Virus record (IMG/VR): IMGVR_UViG_2737471853_000011
Span: 1-37,206 of that record
From: a virus
Taxonomy: Duplodnaviria; Heunggongvirae; Uroviricota; Caudoviricetes
Length of the DNA stretch: 37,206 nucleotides
Direction: 5' to 3' (one strand)
Of the stretch, positions 2,580 through 35,838 are shown one piece after another. How positions within the stretch are numbered: position 1 is the stretch's first letter; each line of letters starts with the position of its first letter. The position numbers and the translations under genes were made by a program. The notes beneath the pieces were generated by a model, which was not told the origin of the DNA, did not search any database, and was given only the letters and a program-made list of their open reading frames with translations.

Positions 2580-2914
2580 GAGCAAAATTAGGCGCAGCGG
2601 TGTGTGTGACCGGCTCTACAGGCTATATGACTATCCCGGCAATGGTCGCCGGGAAAGAACGGGTGATCATATTGCAGTGGTTTGGTGCTGCTACAACTGA
2701 TTATGTGACACCAGTAACTGCGAATTTCCCTATTGCATTCCCAAATGAGTGCATGATTCCGTTATTTAGTGATGTATCAACTGGGGCAGTTGATTTGAGT
2801 TCTACAGCCGCATATAGCTTAGCGGTGGGCCGATCATACTATACGACGGTAACAAGAACTCAGATTACATGTGCTGGCTACGGTGGCTTTAGAGTTTTCG
2901 CGATTGGATGGTGA
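2566..2914 (+). CDS. Alternative tail-fibre C-terminal segment (promoterless; joined to the constant N-terminus after inversion)
   Basis: ORF in frame through the crossover site (..[12 protein letters not shown]..) with no independent start; followed by its own assembly-chaperone gene. Confidence 0.65.
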
Positions 2915-3339
2915 TTAATATGTTTTATTCTGCAAAAGAAAATGCGTTCTACGCTGATGAGCTAAAAAGTATTTATGAAAATGCAGGTAGCTGGCCTGAC
3001 GATGCCGTTGAAGTAGACTATTCCGTATTCGTTGAGTTTGCCGGAGAAACACCTAACGGAAAATTACGCGCTCCTAATTCTGATGGTTTACCTGAATGGA
3101 TAGATATTCCCGAACCAACTGAAGAGGAAATTATTGCGTTGGCAGAAGCCGAAAAATCGCGACTGCGTGCTTCAGCTGACTCTGAAATAGAATGGCGGCA
3201 GGACGCCGTTGATGCGGGGATCGCGACGGAAGAAGAAACTGTTTCATTAGCCGAATGGAAAAAATACCGGGTGCTGCTGATGCGAGTTGATACAGCAGAC
3301 CCGGACTGGCCTACTCCTCCGGCGACTCAGGCCAGTTGA
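2908..3339 (+). CDS. Tail fibre assembly protein (alternate copy)
   Basis: 143-aa ORF directly after the alternate fibre segment; acidic C-terminus typical of fibre chaperones. Confidence 0.75.
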
Positions 3340-3916
3340 TATCTGGTGCGCTGGATATGTCCACAGATTCCAGCGCATCGAGATAATCCAGCCATAGGTT
3401 ATATTGCTCTTTTTCTGTCTCTGTCAATCGTCCTAATGCGGCCTTGCCGGGCCATTGCTTTTTGTTCATATAGTCATTGGCCTGGTCAGTTCTCGACAGC
3501 TTTTCTCCTTCGGCAGTAGCGACATTGGCTGCGTGCTGAGCTTCTACATCTGTTACCCACTGTTCCCCATTCCATTTATCATATAATGATGTAGGGGCAA
3601 TGGGTGTTGTATGAGTGGGATAATCGCCAAGTGTCGTTACTTGAACTTGTTGCATCGTCTCTGTGCTATAAACGGTTTGGCCTCTTTTGTCGATAATGTA
3701 TATCCATGATGTAAGGTCTGCTGTTCGACAAATAGCAAATCCGTCTTTGCTTTCGCCAGGTGCGTCAGTGCATGAATTCGCAGGAATGCCGACACCAACG
3801 GGTAAGTATTCAACCGTTGAAGAAAGATATTCGCGCGTCTCACAATCATAATTGTAAACAGTAATATCACCTGATTTCGTGGAAATACCATTATTATTCA
3901 GTATCGCTTTAGTCAT
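3311..3916 (-). CDS. Tail fibre assembly protein (expressed orientation)
   Basis: 201-aa ORF directly downstream of the fibre gene with start overlapping the fibre stop. Confidence 0.8.
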
Positions 3917-4677
3917 TATGCAGCCCTCACAATATAATTAAATGCGATATTACGTGGACGGCTAACAATGGAGTTGCCAGAGTCAACATTCAATTTATTC
4001 ATCGCTGTACTACCCGTAATTGTCTGAGACTGTAATGCAGTTGTGGATGGTGATTTATCCCCTTGGAATGGGCTAAGGTCATAAGCAGTTGCTGTTGCTA
4101 ATACTACCGTTGCCTGCGTGTCATTCTTCCAGTCAACCCCGATATAAGTACCTCCCTGCGCAGAAAGCAGCGAACGTCCAGTATCAACCCCGCGTCCGTC
4201 ATCCCATCCACGAATAAACTCCCCCCGCAGGTCTGGAAGTTTCATGTCTGGATAGGCTAGTGCCAGTTTAGGGTACTGGGAGGCAGTGAACGCGGCTCCG
4301 TTGCATTTAAGCCATCCCTTTGGTGGCGTTGCTGACGGCCACGGAATGGGGACGCCAACCGGCAATGCAGAACCTTCTCCCAAACCAAGGTTTTCGAGAG
4401 CCGTTTTCACCGTGCCATCCGATTTGATATCGCCAAACGGATTCTTGCGGCTTAACAGCAGCGCACGAAGCGCTGTAAGTAGCTGGTCATGCCGCCCCTT
4501 CTCCAGGCTGGCACCGGATGCCTCCACAACACTGCAAAGTTCCTCCTGCAACATGTCAAAGTAGTCATCATCCAGATCGGTGGCAGGTGTGCCGGTCTGG
4601 GGGTTACCACGGGTAAAACCGTTCTTACCCGCGCCGAACTTATCCTTCTGCGCGGTTTTCGTATCTATACGATGCAT
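3916..4677 (-). CDS. Tail fibre protein (constant N-terminus 4401..4677, variable C-terminus inside the invertible segment)
   Basis: 253-aa ORF; crossover site lies in frame at residues ~93-101 (ALENLGLGE). Confidence 0.85.
4375..4400. repeat. Invertase crossover site (gix/hix-like), distal, inside the tail fibre gene
   Basis: TTCTCCCAAACCAAGGTTTTCGAGAG; internal dyad symmetry around a central AA; inverted relative to 2554..2579. Confidence 0.75.
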
Positions 4678-30215: not shown

Positions 30216-30775
30216 GCGTTAGTTTCTCCACAGTCACGACACGCCACGGCGCCCGGAGCTGCACACTCGCGGGCGTCATTACTTTCTGAAATGCAAAAAA
30301 TTTTGTAGACCAGTGCTGCATGCTCCTGCAGCTTCGAAATTGAGAGGTACAGCTCGTCGTTAATTGCTGTCTTCTCATGCGGTTCCACTACACCGTCTTC
30401 AATTGCTGAACGAATCTGTTTTGAATAACTGCCGATCTGTTCAATGACCTCCAGCAGGCGTTGGTTGATATCGGCGTTGTCCACATCCTCGACATCAGGA
30501 AGAGACACAAAGACGCCATTTGCAGACTGCGCCACAGCGTCAGCAATGAAGTGAGTTCCACCAGCACGTTGCAAAATCATTGCCCATCCCAGCGGGAAAA
30601 TCTGATCGCCATCGGCACGAAGGCGGTTAAATAATGCGTTCTCTGTTACATCCAGCCAGTCAGCTGCTTCAGCGTAACCACCCGGCAACTTTGCGATAGT
30701 TTTTCTGACAGCTTTCACGTACCACTCAGGCTGTTTTTCTACTTTCCAGTGATGCTTACCCACGGTTAGCCTCAT
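30212..30775 (-). CDS. Early regulatory protein (CII-like?)
   Basis: 187-aa ORF directly downstream of cro-like gene; family uncertain. Confidence 0.4.
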
Positions 30776-30806
30776 CGTTCTGTGGTTAAAAATTGAAAGT
30801 GTTCTG

Positions 30807-31007
30807 CTAATCTTTCGGATAGATATCCGGTCTTAAGTCAGATTTCGTAATTGCACCTGACGTGCATTGCTCAAGTTTTTTAGCCAGCACAAAACTGGCT
30901 TTTTTATAGCCATTGAAAACCAGCCGTAAGTAGCCAGGTGTTGAGCCAACTTTTCCGGCCAACTCGCCCTGCTGTTCTTTGGTTAAAGAGTCCCAATACG
31001 CTTTCAT
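30807..31007 (-). CDS. cro: Cro-like repressor (66 aa)
   Basis: HTH (QQGELAGKVGSTPGYLRLV), divergent from cI; GGAGG RBS; ORF-track ORF truncated to the internal ATG. Confidence 0.7.
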   Translation of the reverse strand: MKAYWDSLTKEQQGELAGKVGSTPGYLRLVFNGYKKASFVLAKKLEQCTSGAITKSDLRPDIYPKD

Positions 31008-31010
31008 ACA

Positions 31011-31033
31011 ATATGTACCTCCGATGTACATAT
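31011..31033. promoter_or_regulatory. Operator-like inverted repeat ATATGTAC-N7-GTACATAT overlapping the cro promoter
   Basis: Perfect 8-bp arms; ATGTACC-type motif recurs at pL. Confidence 0.45.
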
Positions 31034-31057
31034 TACATGATTGAAATGAACCTTCAA
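31030..31057 (-). promoter_or_regulatory. pR-like promoter for cro, TTGAAG-N16-TAATAT
   Basis: Hexamers read on minus strand, about 23 nt upstream of cro ATG. Confidence 0.4.
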
Positions 31058-31061
31058 GATA

Positions 31062-31082
31062 CTTGTACCTTAACGGTACAAG
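31062..31082. promoter_or_regulatory. Operator-like palindrome CTTGTACC-TTAAC-GGTACAAG
   Basis: Perfect 8-bp arms in the cI-cro intergenic region. Confidence 0.5.
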
Positions 31083-31091
31083 GGTTTTAAT
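31063..31091 (+). promoter_or_regulatory. pRM-like promoter, TTGTAC-N17-TTTAAT, giving a leaderless cI mRNA
   Basis: Predicted start at or next to the cI ATG (31098); no SD upstream of cI. Confidence 0.35.
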
Positions 31092-31097
31092 TTCGTT

Positions 31098-31772
31098 ATG
31101 AAAACAATCCATGACATCCGGCGGTCTAACGCCAGAAAACTGAGAGATGGTGTTGGCGGGAATTCTTCCTTTGCCACTATGATTGATCGCGAGCCAACCC
31201 AGACCAGCAGGTTTATGGGAGATGGTGCTACTAAAAATATCGGTGACAGCATGGCACGACACATCGAAAAATGTTTCGACCTGCCTGTCGGATGGCTCGA
31301 TCAAGAACACCAGACAACGAACATCACAAAAAAACCTGATGTTTCAATCACTAATAAACAAATCACATTAGTCCCTGTCATATCATGGGTACAGGCCGGA
31401 GCATGGAAAGAAGTTGGATATTCTGAGGTTGATTTGAGCACAGCAGAAACGTATCCCTGCCCTGTACCCTGTGGGGAAATGACTTATATCTTGCGGGTGA
31501 TAGGTGATTCAATGATTGATGAGTACCGCCCGGGAGACATGATTTTTGTCGATCCTGAAGTACCTGCCTGCCACGGTGACGACGTTATTGCATTGATGCA
31601 CGATACAGGCGAAACCACCTTCAAAAGGTTGATAGAAGATGGGACACAGCGTTATCTCAAAGCGTTAAACCCAAACTGGCCTGAGCCTTACATTAAGATC
31701 AACGGTAATTGCTCTATAATTGGTACAGTGATTTTCTCAGGAAAACCAAGAAGATACAAAATCAAAGCCTAA
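31098..31772 (+). CDS. cI: CI-type repressor (HTH plus LexA-like S24 autopeptidase domain)
   Basis: 224-aa ORF; C-terminal half has the Ser...Lys autocleavage pattern (GDSM, KR); divergent from cro. Confidence 0.9.
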   Translation: MKTIHDIRRSNARKLRDGVGGNSSFATMIDREPTQTSRFMGDGATKNIGDSMARHIEKCFDLPVGWLDQEHQTTNITKKPDVSITNKQITLVPVISWVQAGAWKEVGYSEVDLSTAETYPCPVPCGEMTYILRVIGDSMIDEYRPGDMIFVDPEVPACHGDDVIALMHDTGETTFKRLIEDGTQRYLKALNPNWPEPYIKINGNCSIIGTVIFSGKPRRYKIKA

Positions 31773-31784
31773 TCAATGTTTATG

Positions 31785-31807
31785 AACCTGCTTCGGCAGG
31801 TTTTTTT
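31785..31807 (+). terminator. Rho-independent terminator after cI
   Basis: AACCTGC-TTCG-GCAGGTT followed by TTTTT. Confidence 0.7.
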
Positions 31808-31811
31808 ATAC

Positions 31812-31839
31812 TTGACAATGTACCTTTGAGATACATAAT
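31812..31839 (+). promoter_or_regulatory. pL-like promoter, TTGACA-N16-CATAAT, with two AATGTACC operator motifs (31817..31824, 31837..31844)
   Basis: Consensus -35; operator motif shared with the cI-cro intergenic region. Confidence 0.5.
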
Positions 31840-31928
31840 GTACCCAACCGAAACAACGAACAGGCAGGACGCCCACGAAGTAGCCGCCTGGGGCATATGA
31901 AGTCCAGGATGATTCGTTAGCAACAAAA

Positions 31929-31948
31929 AAGCGCCCTACAGGACGCTT
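31929..31948 (-). terminator. Possible minus-strand terminator shielding pL/cI from leftward transcription
   Basis: Read on minus strand: AAGCGTCC-TGTA-GGGCGCTT followed by TTTTGTTG. Confidence 0.35.
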
Positions 31949-32006
31949 AGCTCTTTAACAATCTGGTCCCCATCAACAAGTAACTGATAACTTGAGGAGG
32001 TGTGAA

Positions 32007-32213
32007 ATGCACAAAACAGAACCCAAAATCGTCGCGCCTGGCTACACAGATGAGGAAATTTATGAGTGGATGACAAAGAAGCTGGCAGCTATAAACCAGC
32101 TTCGTGAAGTGCTGTCTTATCGACAGGAAACAATAGACTCCTTAAAAAAACTGGATCAGGAAATCACGGTTTTATCACAGGATGTTACTTTAGATATTGT
32201 GCAGACAAATTAG
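32007..32213 (+). CDS. Hypothetical protein (68 aa), first gene after pL
   Basis: GAGGAGG RBS 6 nt upstream of ATG 32007; acidic, not Arg-rich like N. Confidence 0.55.
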   Translation: MHKTEPKIVAPGYTDEEIYEWMTKKLAAINQLREVLSYRQETIDSLKKLDQEITVLSQDVTLDIVQTN

Positions 32214-32619
32214 GATCCCATTCATTTTCGTCAAAATCATCAAAGTGATGAATTTGTGATCTCCAGTCTCGATAATCTAAAAATTTCTGGGCGGTTACGC
32301 TTATTTTATCAAGTGTGAGTTCATCCTGAATTGAAAGAAGAAGTTCATCAAATTTCATCTCATTAATCTGTTTTGGCATCCAGTGATGCTTCATCAGAAT
32401 AAGGTGAACCAGAGCCTTTTTCCCATTCAACTGATTATAGGGAGTGCCGAATTTCTTCCGGTGCTCATGTAAGACAAGGTCCAGAAGAGTAAGTAATGTT
32501 GCCCTTGATTCAACTTTGCTTATTTCGACTGATGACACTACCCCACTGATTTCAATGCCCCGATACTTTCCAACATTTTCACAGTGGGATTTGTACAGCG
32601 TGTAGATATTACCGGACAT
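32185..32619 (-). CDS. Hypothetical protein (144 aa), AT-rich, antisense within the early-left operon
   Basis: AGGA-type RBS; convergent with the 68-aa gene, 3' ends overlapping by 29 nt. Confidence 0.6.
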   Translation of the reverse strand: MSGNIYTLYKSHCENVGKYRGIEISGVVSSVEISKVESRATLLTLLDLVLHEHRKKFGTPYNQLNGKKALVHLILMKHHWMPKQINEMKFDELLLSIQDELTLDKISVTAQKFLDYRDWRSQIHHFDDFDENEWDPNLSAQYLK

Positions 32620-33163
32620 TTCTTTTCCTTTTGCGTTGTTGGGGATAACCAGATTAACCGAATCCTTGTTGTTGGGGAATAACCAGGTCCACCTCGCCTG
32701 ATGTGGCTAAAAGCAGGCACATAACAGCTAAGTATTTTCAACCAGAGAGAATCCTTAGCGTTGTGGTGAATGCGGCTCAGCGCACGCGGGTTAAGGTTGA
32801 GGCTGACAGTCGACCTTCTGTGGATACCCACCCGCCTGGTGTGCAACCTTCGCCAGGCACCGGGAGGCACCCGGCACCACAACTTTATGCTGTGTGTAGT
32901 CCTGGCGGTACCAGTTTGTACCCTTGCTTCCGGCTGGTACCGTCCTTTTTACAAAACAGAGAAGAGCATCACCGGACGACGGGCTCATAACCCAATCCAT
33001 CCGGGCGGCTGCCACCGCAGGTGTTCTTCTCTGTTTTGTGGAGAAACTAACCGCCCCTACGGGGGCATTTATGGAAATGTAATTGACTCAATAATCGCCG
33101 GACGGTGAGGGCTTCCTTTTACCCGAATTCAGCGCGGTGCAGCGCATATACGTGGAGAACAAA

Positions 33164-33700
33164 ATGTCATTTATTAAAACTTTTTCCGGGAAGCATTTTT
33201 ATTATGACAGGATAAATAAAGACGACATCGTTATTAACGATATCGCGGTTTCCCTTTCAAATATCTGTCGCTTTGCAGGACATCTTTCACACTTCTACAG
33301 TGTCGCCCAACATGCGGTGCTTTGCAGCCAGCTGGTGCCGCAGGAATTTGCTTTTGAAGCTTTAATGCATGATGCAACAGAAGCATATTGCCAGGACATC
33401 CCCGCACCACTGAAACGACTTCTTCCTGACTATAAACGGATGGAAGAAAAAATAGACGCCGTAATCCGTGAGAAATACGGGTTACCTCCTGTTATGAGCA
33501 CGCCAGTGAAATATGCCGATCTCATTATGCTGGCAACCGAACGCCGCGATCTCGGGCTTGATGATGGCTCTTTCTGGCCTGTGCTGGAAGGTATCCCGGC
33601 AACAGAGATGTTCAACGTGATTCCACTGGCTCCAGGCCATGCCTACGGGATGTTTATGGAACGCTTTAACGAATTATCGGAGTTACGCAAATGCGCATGA
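33164..33700 (+). CDS. HD-domain phosphohydrolase
   Basis: His..HD..D pattern (..SHFYSVAQHAVL.., ..LMHDATEAY..); GGAG RBS before ATG 33164. Confidence 0.65.
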   Translation: MSFIKTFSGKHFYYDRINKDDIVINDIAVSLSNICRFAGHLSHFYSVAQHAVLCSQLVPQEFAFEALMHDATEAYCQDIPAPLKRLLPDYKRMEEKIDAVIREKYGLPPVMSTPVKYADLIMLATERRDLGLDDGSFWPVLEGIPATEMFNVIPLAPGHAYGMFMERFNELSELRKCA

Positions 33701-34358: not shown

Positions 34359-34708
34359 TGGAGCCATACAGCCTCACACTCGATGAGGCCTGTCATTTTC
34401 TCAAGATATCCAGACCGACTGCCATTAACTGGATACGCACAGGGCGTCTTCAGGCAACACGCAAAGATCCCACTAAGAATAAATCTCCTTACCTCACAAC
34501 ACGACAAGCCTGCATTGCGGCTCTTCAGTCTCCGCTGCATACTGTCCAGGTGAGCGCGGGTGATGGCATAACAGAGGAAAGAAAATGTCACTCTTCCGCA
34601 GAGGTGAAATATGGTACGCCAGTTTCACATTGCCGAACGGTAAAAGATTTAAACAGTCTCTTGGAACAAAGGACAAAAGGCAGGCGACAGAACTCCATGA
34701 CAAGCTAA
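34358..34708 (+). CDS. xis: Excisionase (AlpA/Xis-type HTH), 116 aa
   Basis: AAGAGG RBS; HTH ..[26 protein letters not shown]..; 3' end overlaps int in another frame. Confidence 0.7.
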
Positions 34709-35748
34709 AGGCTGAAGCATGGCGGGTCAGCAAACTTGGTGAAATACCTGATATAACGTTCGAGGAAGCGTGTGTCAGGTGGCTTGAAGAGAAAGCACAT
34801 AAAAAATCACTGGACGATGACAAAAGCCGGATCGGATTCTGGCTTCAACATTTCGCAGGAATGCAACTAAGAGACATTACTGAATCAAAAATTTATTCAG
34901 CAATGCAGAAAATGACGAACCGGCGTCATGAGGAAAACTGGAAACTCAGGGCAGAAGCATGCAGAAAAAAAGGGAAACCTGTTCCAGAATACACGCCAAA
35001 ACCAGCGTCCGTTGCAACGAAGGCTACGCATCTTTCATTTATAAAGGCCCTACTAAGAGCCGCAGAGCGTGAATGGAAAATGCTGGATAAGGCACCAATT
35101 ATTAAAGTGCCTCAACCAAAGAATAAACGGATCCGCTGGCTGGAGCCCCATGAAGCACAAAGGCTGATTGATGAATGTCCGGAGCCATTAAAGTCTGTTG
35201 TTGAATTTGCACTGGCAACAGGCTTAAGACGCTCAAACATCATCAACCTTGAATGGCAACAAATAGATATGCAGCGCCGGGTGGCATGGATAAACCCGGA
35301 AGAGAGTAAATCAAACCGCGCAATTGGCGTTGCGCTGAATGATACTGCATGTCGCGTATTGAAAAAACAAATCGGGAATCATCACCGTTGGGTATTTGTG
35401 TACAAGGAAAGCTGTACCAAACCAGACGGAACGAAAGCGCCAACAGTAAGGAAGATGCGGTATGACGCAAACACAGCCTGGAAAGCGGCGCTGAGACGGG
35501 CTGGTATTGATGATTTCAGATTTCACGACTTGAGACACACCTGGGCAAGTTGGCTGGTTCAAGCCGGAGTCCCGTTGTCAGTGTTACAGGAAATGGGAGG
35601 CTGGGAGTCTATCGAAATGGTTCGTCGATATGCTCACCTTGCACCTAATCACCTTACCGAACACGCACGGCAAATAGACTCGATCCTGAACCCATCGGTC
35701 CCAAATTTGTCCCAGTCAAAAAATAAGGAAGGTACTAATGATGTGTAA
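34585..35748 (+). CDS. int: Tyrosine integrase, tRNA-Thr (thrW)-targeting type
   Basis: 387-aa ORF with R...HxxR...Y catalytic pattern (..[17 protein letters not shown]..), ends 14 bp from tRNA 3' end. Confidence 0.95.
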
Positions 35749-35762
35749 CTTATTGATTTAAA

Positions 35763-35838
35763 TGGTGCCGATAATAGGAGTCGAACCTACGACCTTCGCA
35801 TTACGAATGCGCTGCTCTACCAACTGAGCTATATCGGC
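35763..35838 (-). tRNA. thrW: tRNA-Thr (anticodon CGT), thrW-type, with encoded CCA
   Basis: Reverse complement GCCGATATAGCTCAGTTGGTAGAGCAGCGCATTCGTAATGCG..GGTTCGACTCCTATTATCGGCACCA has cloverleaf features and a T-loop. Confidence 0.95.

Follow-up and report, generated by a model that had tools for sequence, protein, structure and literature searches.

Two convergent genes, encoding proteins of 68 and 144 amino acids (aa) and overlapping at their 3′ ends, form what the loci compared here indicate is a portable cassette in the virus record IMGVR_UViG_2737471853_000011. The whole 37,206-nucleotide (nt) stretch of that record was analysed and is called the window below. The pair sits behind the repressor gene cI and the pL-type promoter of a lambdoid prophage, in the slot that sieB occupies in phage lambda and in the Rac prophage. 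Both protein families are already catalogued, with function unassigned. What is new is the conserved convergent overlapping pair, and also the movement of the cassette among three kinds of lytic operon and its position behind a sieB-type platform, in a sieB slot whose cargo is swappable. Our favoured reading, to which we give a probability of about 0.4, is that the 144-aa protein acts as an exclusion effector in the lysogen and that the 68-aa protein is its neutralising partner, expressed as part of the lytic operon. For architecture and regulation this reading draws on sequence comparison, for exclusion and self-immunity on position and analogy; the statement about architecture is much more secure than the exclusion-plus-self-immunity reading.

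The convergent gene pair

The pair comprises the following features of the window.

31994–32000, plus strand: Shine-Dalgarno sequence GAGGAGG of the 68-aa gene, 6 nt ahead of the ATG
32007–32213, plus strand: gene for the 68-aa acidic protein (PHROG 1744, isoelectric point 4.78), which would be read from pL
32185–32619, minus strand: gene for the 144-aa protein (ECs1072 family NF033230, PHROG 5286)
32185–32213: overlap of both coding 3′ ends, 29 nt
32211–32220: TAGGATCCCA, a remnant of the palindrome TGGGATCCCA; here the Trp codon of the small gene is a TAG stop

A preliminary description of this DNA had reported a 68-aa acidic open reading frame (ORF) with a strong ribosome binding site (RBS), overlapped for 29 nt by the 3′ end of an AT-rich 144-aa gene on the minus strand. 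Both genes were recovered (the larger has 38.4% GC, against 51% window-wide), as was every other feature that it had listed, each at its place. The 144-aa protein matches the NCBIfam model NF033230 with 157.8 bits (cutoff 70, residues 4–144) and PHROG 5286 at 1.5e-90 over residues 1–144. An exhaustive profile search yielded 76 clusters of the ECs1072 family at 50% identity, nearly all of them stand-alone proteins of ~145–155 aa, in which R54, L64, G66, A69, H72 and W134 are near-invariant; the founding member, ECs1072, is from Escherichia coli O157:H7 Sakai. The 68-aa ORF, the first after pL, matches PHROG 1744 at 6e-35 over its full length (residues 1–68 of a 68-position profile) and encodes an N-terminal motif, EPxxxxPGYTDEEIxEW, followed by a helical region.

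We compared the DNA around 15 diverged family members, all from Enterobacterales phage loci. In ~14 of the 15, the large gene has at its 3′ end a small convergent ORF that either abuts or overlaps it, and the coding overlap in relatives is 44–95 nt. Representative loci, with the identity of their large protein to that of the window, are as follows.

L008, metagenome: 52% identical, overlap 44 nt
L028, Logan assembly of SRR12267831: 58% identical, overlap 50 nt
L011, Serratia quinivorans: 35% identical, overlap 74 nt
L012, Salmonella phage ST64B: ~32% over the C-terminal two-thirds, overlap 71 nt
L013, Klebsiella phage KPP5665-2: ~30% over the C-terminal two-thirds, overlap 95 nt
L019, L020 and L027, Pantoea P2-like prophages: 22–26% identity, overlap 62 nt

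Because pairing, convergence and 3′ overlap recur at 35–58% identity of the large protein, the gene arrangement is, on this comparison, beyond chance. The convergent partners in L006, L008, L011, L012, L013, L019, L027 and L028 carry the motif EPxxxxPGxxxE(E/Q)(I/L)x(E/D)W(M/L), and BLASTP relates the 68-aa protein to the Serratia partner at E 1e-5. The two proteins diverge in parallel, with large/small identities of 52/52%, 68/69% and 40/46% in three comparisons. The ratio of non-synonymous to synonymous substitution rates (dN/dS) is 0.09–0.23 for the large gene and, for the small gene outside the overlap, 0.07 (ST64B versus the Klebsiella phage). Judged by these ratios, both ORFs are real protein-coding genes under purifying selection. 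The same comparisons show the 68-aa gene diverging along with the large gene, as a dedicated partner and more than a mere pL neighbour, a relationship that the preliminary description had missed.

Three loci depart from the pattern while keeping the large gene intact: L007 has no partner, the partner of L021 is truncated, and that of L006, from Escherichia albertii, is frameshifted. Loss of the small gene beside an intact large gene fits a non-toxic effector whose partner is needed for lytic growth only, and argues against a classical toxin–antitoxin pair. The branch from Pectobacterium, Lonsdalea and Symbiopectobacterium has a different overlapping ORF.

In the overlap of distant pairs the palindrome TGGGATCCCA is read as W-D-P on both strands (L011 4391–4400, L012 3247–3256, L013 3247–3256). 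The large-gene strand of the window has TGGGATCCTA, one base different, a change that is synonymous for the large gene and turns Trp into TAG in the small one. The partners in the Serratia, Salmonella and Klebsiella phages have 80–85 aa; since the Trp codon became TAG, the 68-aa protein is a shortened form of these.

Three lytic operons

Without exception among the loci compared, the large gene runs antisense to a lytic operon, whose direction the small gene shares. The operons are of three kinds.

Beside cI/pL: the window, L006, L016, L017, L021, L026 and L028
Between the Q antiterminator gene and the holin gene: L011, L012 and L013
Within a P2-type early operon, downstream of cox: L019, L020 and L027

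This distribution is what marks the two-gene unit as a portable cassette. Within the SfV group its flanks are kept (on the left to 31918 or 31966, on the right from 32635 or 32689); between them SfV carries orf33, and SfII a 63-aa minus-strand gene. Kati and 689R6 have the same cassette with another cI and operator set. A second cargo family occupies the same slot, with the sieB-type platform, in PhiR29_1 (L005 ~2788–3300, minus strand) and 689R2 (L015 1879–2448, minus strand); its members combine coiled coils with a zinc ribbon (CPxC...CxxC) at the C terminus. The view of the minus-strand gene as AT-rich swappable cargo is borne out by SfV, SfII, PhiR29_1 and 689R2, which hold other genes at that place. 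No PADLOC or Pfam assignment was obtained for this other cargo (PhiR29_1, 689R2, SfV orf33, SfII_36).

The sieB slot and its putative promoter platform

The preliminary description had set the pair at the cI-proximal site where lambda carries rexAB. That equivalence fails, as rexAB is transcribed together with cI from the interval that separates cI from pL, whereas the pair is downstream of the pL promoter/operator. The site is the sieB position, past pL and convergent with the first pL gene. In lambda, sieB (34482–35036, plus strand) is convergent with and abuts N (35037–35438, minus strand); in Rac, sieB is convergent with ydaF with a 4-nt overlap, and the KilS small RNA (sRNA) follows. The gene order of the window matches the Rac layout: cI, pL, small ORF, convergent cargo gene, sRNA. 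By this order the pair stands where sieB stands in lambda and Rac.

The likeness extends to the DNA upstream of the cargo gene.

32620–32735, minus strand: sieB-type upstream platform, recognized by alignment with sieB upstream regions

The stretch of some 110 nt ahead of the 144-aa gene can be aligned with the sieB upstream regions of lambda, Rac and Hafnia phage Pocitis76, and the same alignment takes in those of the cargo genes of 689R2 and PhiR29_1 as well as L008. The shared order is GTGCCTG..CTTTTA.CCACATCAGGC..GGTGG, then T(A/T)CCCC, 17 nt and TAAnnT, then a second copy of CCCC(T/A)ACA and the start codon. In the window, GTGCCTG..CCACATCAGGC..GGTGG is at 32720–32689, TTCCCC at 32679–32674 and, after a 17-nt spacer, TAATCT at 32656–32651; CCCCAACAAC is found at the −35 position and again just ahead of the 144-aa RBS. 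We infer that this block is a sieB-type promoter platform. Because the upstream region is homologous to those of sieB in lambda, Rac and the Hafnia phage, lysogen-type, independent expression of the 144-aa gene is likely.

The platform is common to unrelated cargo: sieB, the ECs1072 family and the coiled-coil zinc-ribbon family. Unrelated cargo behind one platform points to the sieB slot as a swappable-cargo hotspot of lambdoid phages, and so to a place for a systematic search for further exclusion genes.

Several smaller observations concern this region. An element of the form GCCTG-N8-10-CCAC-N-TCAGGC-N3-4-GTGG recurs upstream of sieB-slot genes (window 32689–32720, lambda ~34390–34420, Rac at L024 ~2575–2610, L011 and L026); its two interleaved inverted repeats would give a pseudoknot-like topology, and the Rac version, GCCCGG...CCGGGC, looks like a compensatory change. 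The direct repeat GTTGTTGGGGA occurs twice, 33 nt apart (32635–32645 and 32668–32678), just upstream of the 144-aa start. A reading of these 33-nt-spaced repeats as part of a type III toxin–antitoxin-like system was dropped, the repeats being part of the platform common to lambda and Rac. A 20-nt inverted repeat (75% complementary; 31960–31979 and 32636–32655) brackets the cassette exactly at the PhiR29_1 cargo-swap boundaries. The bracketing repeats could pair within either transcript or could mark cassette-exchange junctions. In the Hafnia deposit the start of sieB (L014 1857–2513) is sited within the promoter platform and looks erroneous.

Probable repression of pL and antisense transcription

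Upstream of and across the small gene lie these elements.

31784–31803, plus strand: cI terminator, a hairpin and T-run; the homologous site is annotated as a terminator in SfV
31812–31839, plus strand: pL-type promoter TTGACA-N16-CATAAT, matching the consensus at 11/12 positions
31818–31836: operator ATGTAC-N7-ATACAT, a 19-base-pair palindrome in the promoter spacer, with one mismatch to ATGTAC-N7-GTACAT
31837–31844: second AATGTACC, a half-site covering the −10 hexamer
31846–32006, plus strand: pL leader, with a block at ~31852–31918 common to SfV, SfII, Kati and 689R6
31948–31929, minus strand: intrinsic terminator of the minus-strand transcript, AAGCGTCCTGTAGGGCGCTT followed by TTTTTGTTG, with no T-run on the plus strand

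The consensus promoter that had been described straight after the cI terminator is indeed there, and it is the top-scoring promoter-like site within 30700–33300 in a consensus scan. The two operator motifs ascribed to it are there too: AATGTACC has three exact copies in the 37-kb window, of which two are in the promoter, at 31817 and 31837, the first being the left half of the palindromic operator. The operator form ATGTAC-N7-GTACAT is also present twice in the cI–cro interval, without mismatch at 31013 and with 2 mismatches at 31063, and the window holds four matches to it where 0.92 are expected. As the operator form is the same as in the cI/cro interval, the promoter is a credible cI-repressed pL, which supports the repressor control of pL type proposed earlier.

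The heteroimmune relatives 689R6 and Kati have a different promoter/operator, and homology resumes at ~31852–31855, ~12 nt past the −10 hexamer. Heteroimmune SfII likewise has the leader segment 31852–31918, within which there is a hairpin at ~31862–31891. A structured antitermination RNA in the leader was considered and dropped (fold z = 0.0 versus shuffled sequence; no Rfam match).

The terminator at 31948–31929 is the sole good minus-strand terminator found, and it is located past the start codon of the 68-aa gene. It is kept after the cassette in L008 and after the unrelated minus-strand cargo of PhiR29_1. Because it lies beyond the 68-aa gene, the minus-strand unit probably runs from ~32645 to ~31925, antisense to that entire gene, and the overlap at the RNA level is probably ~290 nt, not merely the coding 29 nt. 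Inverse coupling of the 144-aa gene to pL, which had been suggested from the convergent coding overlap, is thus structurally plausible, in a stronger form than proposed, with antisense over the whole small gene.

In ST64B (L012 3324–3344, plus strand) and Klebsiella phage KPP5665-2 (L013 3326–3342, plus strand), the large-gene terminator is embedded in the small gene's coding region, where its position corresponds to the codons for the conserved peptide AALEERL. The ST64B deposit leaves the ECs1072-family gene unannotated and over-extends sb50 (L012 3209–3568), which looks erroneous.

A proposed exclusion effector and its neutralising partner

On the reading that we favour, cI would close pL in the lysogen, and the sieB-type promoter would yield the 144-aa protein. 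Its transcript, antisense to all of the 68-aa gene, would keep the small protein from being produced, and the 144-aa protein would serve as a cytosolic exclusion or abortive-infection factor against superinfecting phages. On induction, strong pL transcription would collide with the fully complementary 144-aa transcript, leading to interference and to decay of double-stranded RNA, and the 68-aa protein would bind or neutralise leftover 144-aa protein, which would spare the prophage from excluding itself. The role of pL would fall to pR′ or the P2 early promoter in relatives.

One of the closest comparisons is with sieB of lambda, P22 and Rac. The slot is alike, past pL and antisense, and the 3′ end meets or overlaps the first pL gene(s); the upstream platform is homologous, and Rac also has a DicF/KilS-type sRNA adjoining. 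The protein is different in sequence, the 144-aa protein being soluble and without a membrane segment. Ranade and Poteete reportedly found in 1993 that sieB is expressed from the prophage and causes abortive infection, and that P22 escapes its own SieB by means of Esc and an antisense RNA (sas). This logic is the one that we propose for the 144-aa/68-aa pair, except that the escape factor here would be a separate protein from the opposite strand, whereas Esc is an internal translation product.

Lambda itself offers further parallels. The OOP transcript and the cII mRNA are convergent, overlap at their 3′ ends and are cut by RNase III; they are a precedent for reciprocal control by such transcripts in a lambdoid phage, although OOP is non-coding and here conserved proteins are encoded on both strands. 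The action of ren against rex is another precedent. As the pair would be, rexAB is an exclusion system of two genes, expressed in the lysogen from a lambdoid immunity region; unlike the pair, it is on the strand of cI and between that gene and pL. There is no homology between the two systems, and the pair has no membrane component.

Outside the lambdoid phages, BstA is a single, far larger protein whose self-immunity element is a DNA site. The pair consists of two smaller proteins, one of which would itself be the self-immunity element, and there is no homology (the family has no PADLOC match). It would resemble BstA/aba in that a defence beside a prophage repressor must spare its own phage (bioRxiv 10.1101/2020.07.13.199331). 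In Pseudomonas phage Fc02 a repressor-proximal lysogen gene overlaps an early lytic gene on the opposite strand, and both show superinfection exclusion (PMC9936078). The phage is Mu-like and from another host, its proteins are unrelated, and its overlap geometry is different.

If the 144-aa protein is an exclusion factor, a new family, its fold unassigned, would be added to prophage-encoded immunity, and overlapping effector and neutraliser genes on opposite strands would give automatic reciprocal expression in lysogeny and lytic growth. It is rather doubtful, to our minds, that the cassette can be generalized as an undescribed two-component prophage exclusion system, with effector and neutraliser on opposite strands and an anciently conserved 3′ overlap that includes TGGGATCCCA, in which the arrangement itself is the lysogeny/lysis switch and plugs in behind any lytic promoter.

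The AlphaFold2 model of the 144-aa protein, from a 58-sequence alignment, is confident and all-helical (predicted local distance difference test score, pLDDT, 91.9; predicted template modelling score, pTM, 0.85), a soluble helical bundle. The Kyte-Doolittle mean of the protein, taken over 19 residues, peaks at 0.84, with no membrane segment; both proteins are soluble and neither is hydrophobic. Pfam, NCBIfam, PHROGs and PADLOC, searched with both, gave families of unknown function only, and Foldseek against BFVD gave nothing below E = 0.8. In the libraries searched, the remote-homology check that had been proposed turned up no housekeeping or phage-propagation function, no defence family and no informative fold, which leaves the fold unassigned there. 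Recurring matches to an HD-GYP/HDOD/YfbR fold were rejected, as their scores were at noise level and the H..HD..D metal-binding motif was missing. The HEPN motif Rx4-6H is absent from the ECs1072 family.

A number of results weigh against an exclusion system. Pfam has no match for either protein (at E <= 1 for the 144-aa protein) or among the 58 family members. In PADLOC-DB 2.0 neither protein has a match and the 58 members give noise only (E >= 0.015, each in a single member). PDB sequences, searched with a profile, gave 0 matches at E <= 10. The 144-aa protein is unrelated in sequence to SieB and lacks a membrane segment. The platform promoter TTCCCC-17-TAATCT is weak by consensus and went uncalled in the promoter scan. 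In the Q-holin copies, a terminator precedes the small gene in the Klebsiella phage and none was found in ST64B; the small gene may there follow a constitutive pR′, so that its being off in the lysogen may fail in that setting.

Other readings of the pair

The pair may instead control the development of its own phage, the 144-aa protein or convergent transcription damping a lytic function or leaky lytic promoters and the 68-aa protein lifting the block, so that lysogeny is stabilised. This is unlikely in our estimation, though the cassette is always near and downstream of a lytic promoter, in three operon types with the same polarity, and the contexts found are all prophages, with none in a chromosomal defence island. 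Close relatives (SfV, SfII, PhiR29_1) hold unrelated cargo in the slot, which argues against a core regulator, and the slot and upstream platform are those of a known exclusion gene.

Two other roles for the 144-aa protein seem improbable. One is that of toxin in an addiction system that retains the prophage, with the 68-aa protein or its antisense mRNA as antidote. A small acidic partner beside a larger protein and their joint divergence would suit this, and the antisense overlap recalls type I systems; but the genes are convergent rather than co-transcribed, the putative antidote would be behind a repressed promoter, the partner is missing or damaged in L007, L021 and L006 where the large gene is intact, and the large protein has no toxin-family match and is no small hydrophobic peptide. 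As formal classes, a type II system was rejected because the genes are convergent and the partner is dispensable in those three loci, and a type I system because, despite the antisense overlap, neither protein is hydrophobic.

The other is that of a host-directed moron, contributing to fitness or virulence, with the 68-aa gene an ordinary early gene that merely adjoins it. The 144-aa gene is AT-rich cargo with its own predicted promoter and terminator; the cassette or a close variant is in 323 of 5,426 complete E. coli genomes (~6%), and the family's founder is from O157:H7 Sakai. Pairing and overlap are, however, retained across loci and Enterobacterales hosts, and pairing that is kept on relocation points to a functional link of both genes and to a phage-centred role.

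That only one ORF is real, the 68-aa ORF being incidental to the pL leader or to the minus-strand 3′ untranslated region, is very improbable: several database copies of the small ORF are frameshifted and the E. coli version is cut by a stop at the conserved Trp codon, but the ORF has a strong RBS, it and its N-terminal motif are kept where the large protein has diverged (35–58%), and its dN/dS outside the overlap is the 0.07 given above.

The window and its neighbourhood

Its sequence matches place the window among lambdoid prophages of the SfIV/SfV/e14 type.

31098–31772, plus strand: cI, Peptidase_S24

Shigella phage SfIV aligns with 90% of the region 31700–33200 at 98.4% identity, and an E. 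coli chromosome matches the region at 100%; the RefSeq annotation of that chromosome reads ymfK (cI), a 68-aa hypothetical protein, ‘ECs1072 family phage-associated protein’ and yfdR. Both cassette genes are thus annotated in RefSeq, where the entry identical to the 144-aa protein is named ECs1072 family. Carriers include the serotype-converting phage SfIV of Shigella, with distant relatives in Salmonella ST64B and Klebsiella phages. In the literature, the sole mention of ECs1072 found is one entry in a microarray table, among genes with changed expression in an uninduced O157 Sakai culture (PMC2241611); no paper found deals with either family, and none gives the RefSeq accession. Papers on Gifsy GiPD474 and on HepS were rejected as relevant literature, the proteins being unrelated.

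To the right of the pair is a GC-rich block.

32730–32952, plus strand: putative STnc100/KilS/DicF-like sRNA locus, flanking the cassette and outside the pair

The Rfam model RF02076 (STnc100) aligns here over model positions 1–206 of 206 with 43.1 bits (gathering score 47, E 1.2e-7); in Rfam gathering mode STnc100 has no match at the block. The 3′ hairpin and terminator resemble those of Rac KilS and DicF when the sequence is read by eye. On this likeness the block probably encodes a prophage sRNA like STnc100, an already known one that is related to PasD (bioRxiv 10.64898/2026.05.13.724894). Some part of the 1.5-kb query, most often the sRNA block, is in 3,053 of the 5,426 complete E. coli genomes. 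A wider conserved block, 32689–33064, is annotated elsewhere as a frameshifted pseudogene or as the ORFs SfIV_34 and SfIV_35; in the SfIV deposit (L001) these ORFs, SfIV_35 (3339–3683) and SfIV_34 (3571–4251), are drawn over the sRNA block and look erroneous.

Compared with SfV, SfIV and 689R6, the window lacks yfdP and yfdQ. At 33053–33064 the alignment passes from the end of the sRNA block directly to the region upstream of yfdR, and 12 nt are common to both pieces, which suggests that the two genes were lost by deletion between short repeats. A tRNA gene at 35766–35838 on the minus strand (71.8 bits), directly after the integrase gene (34585–35748), is presumably the attachment-site tRNA of the prophage.

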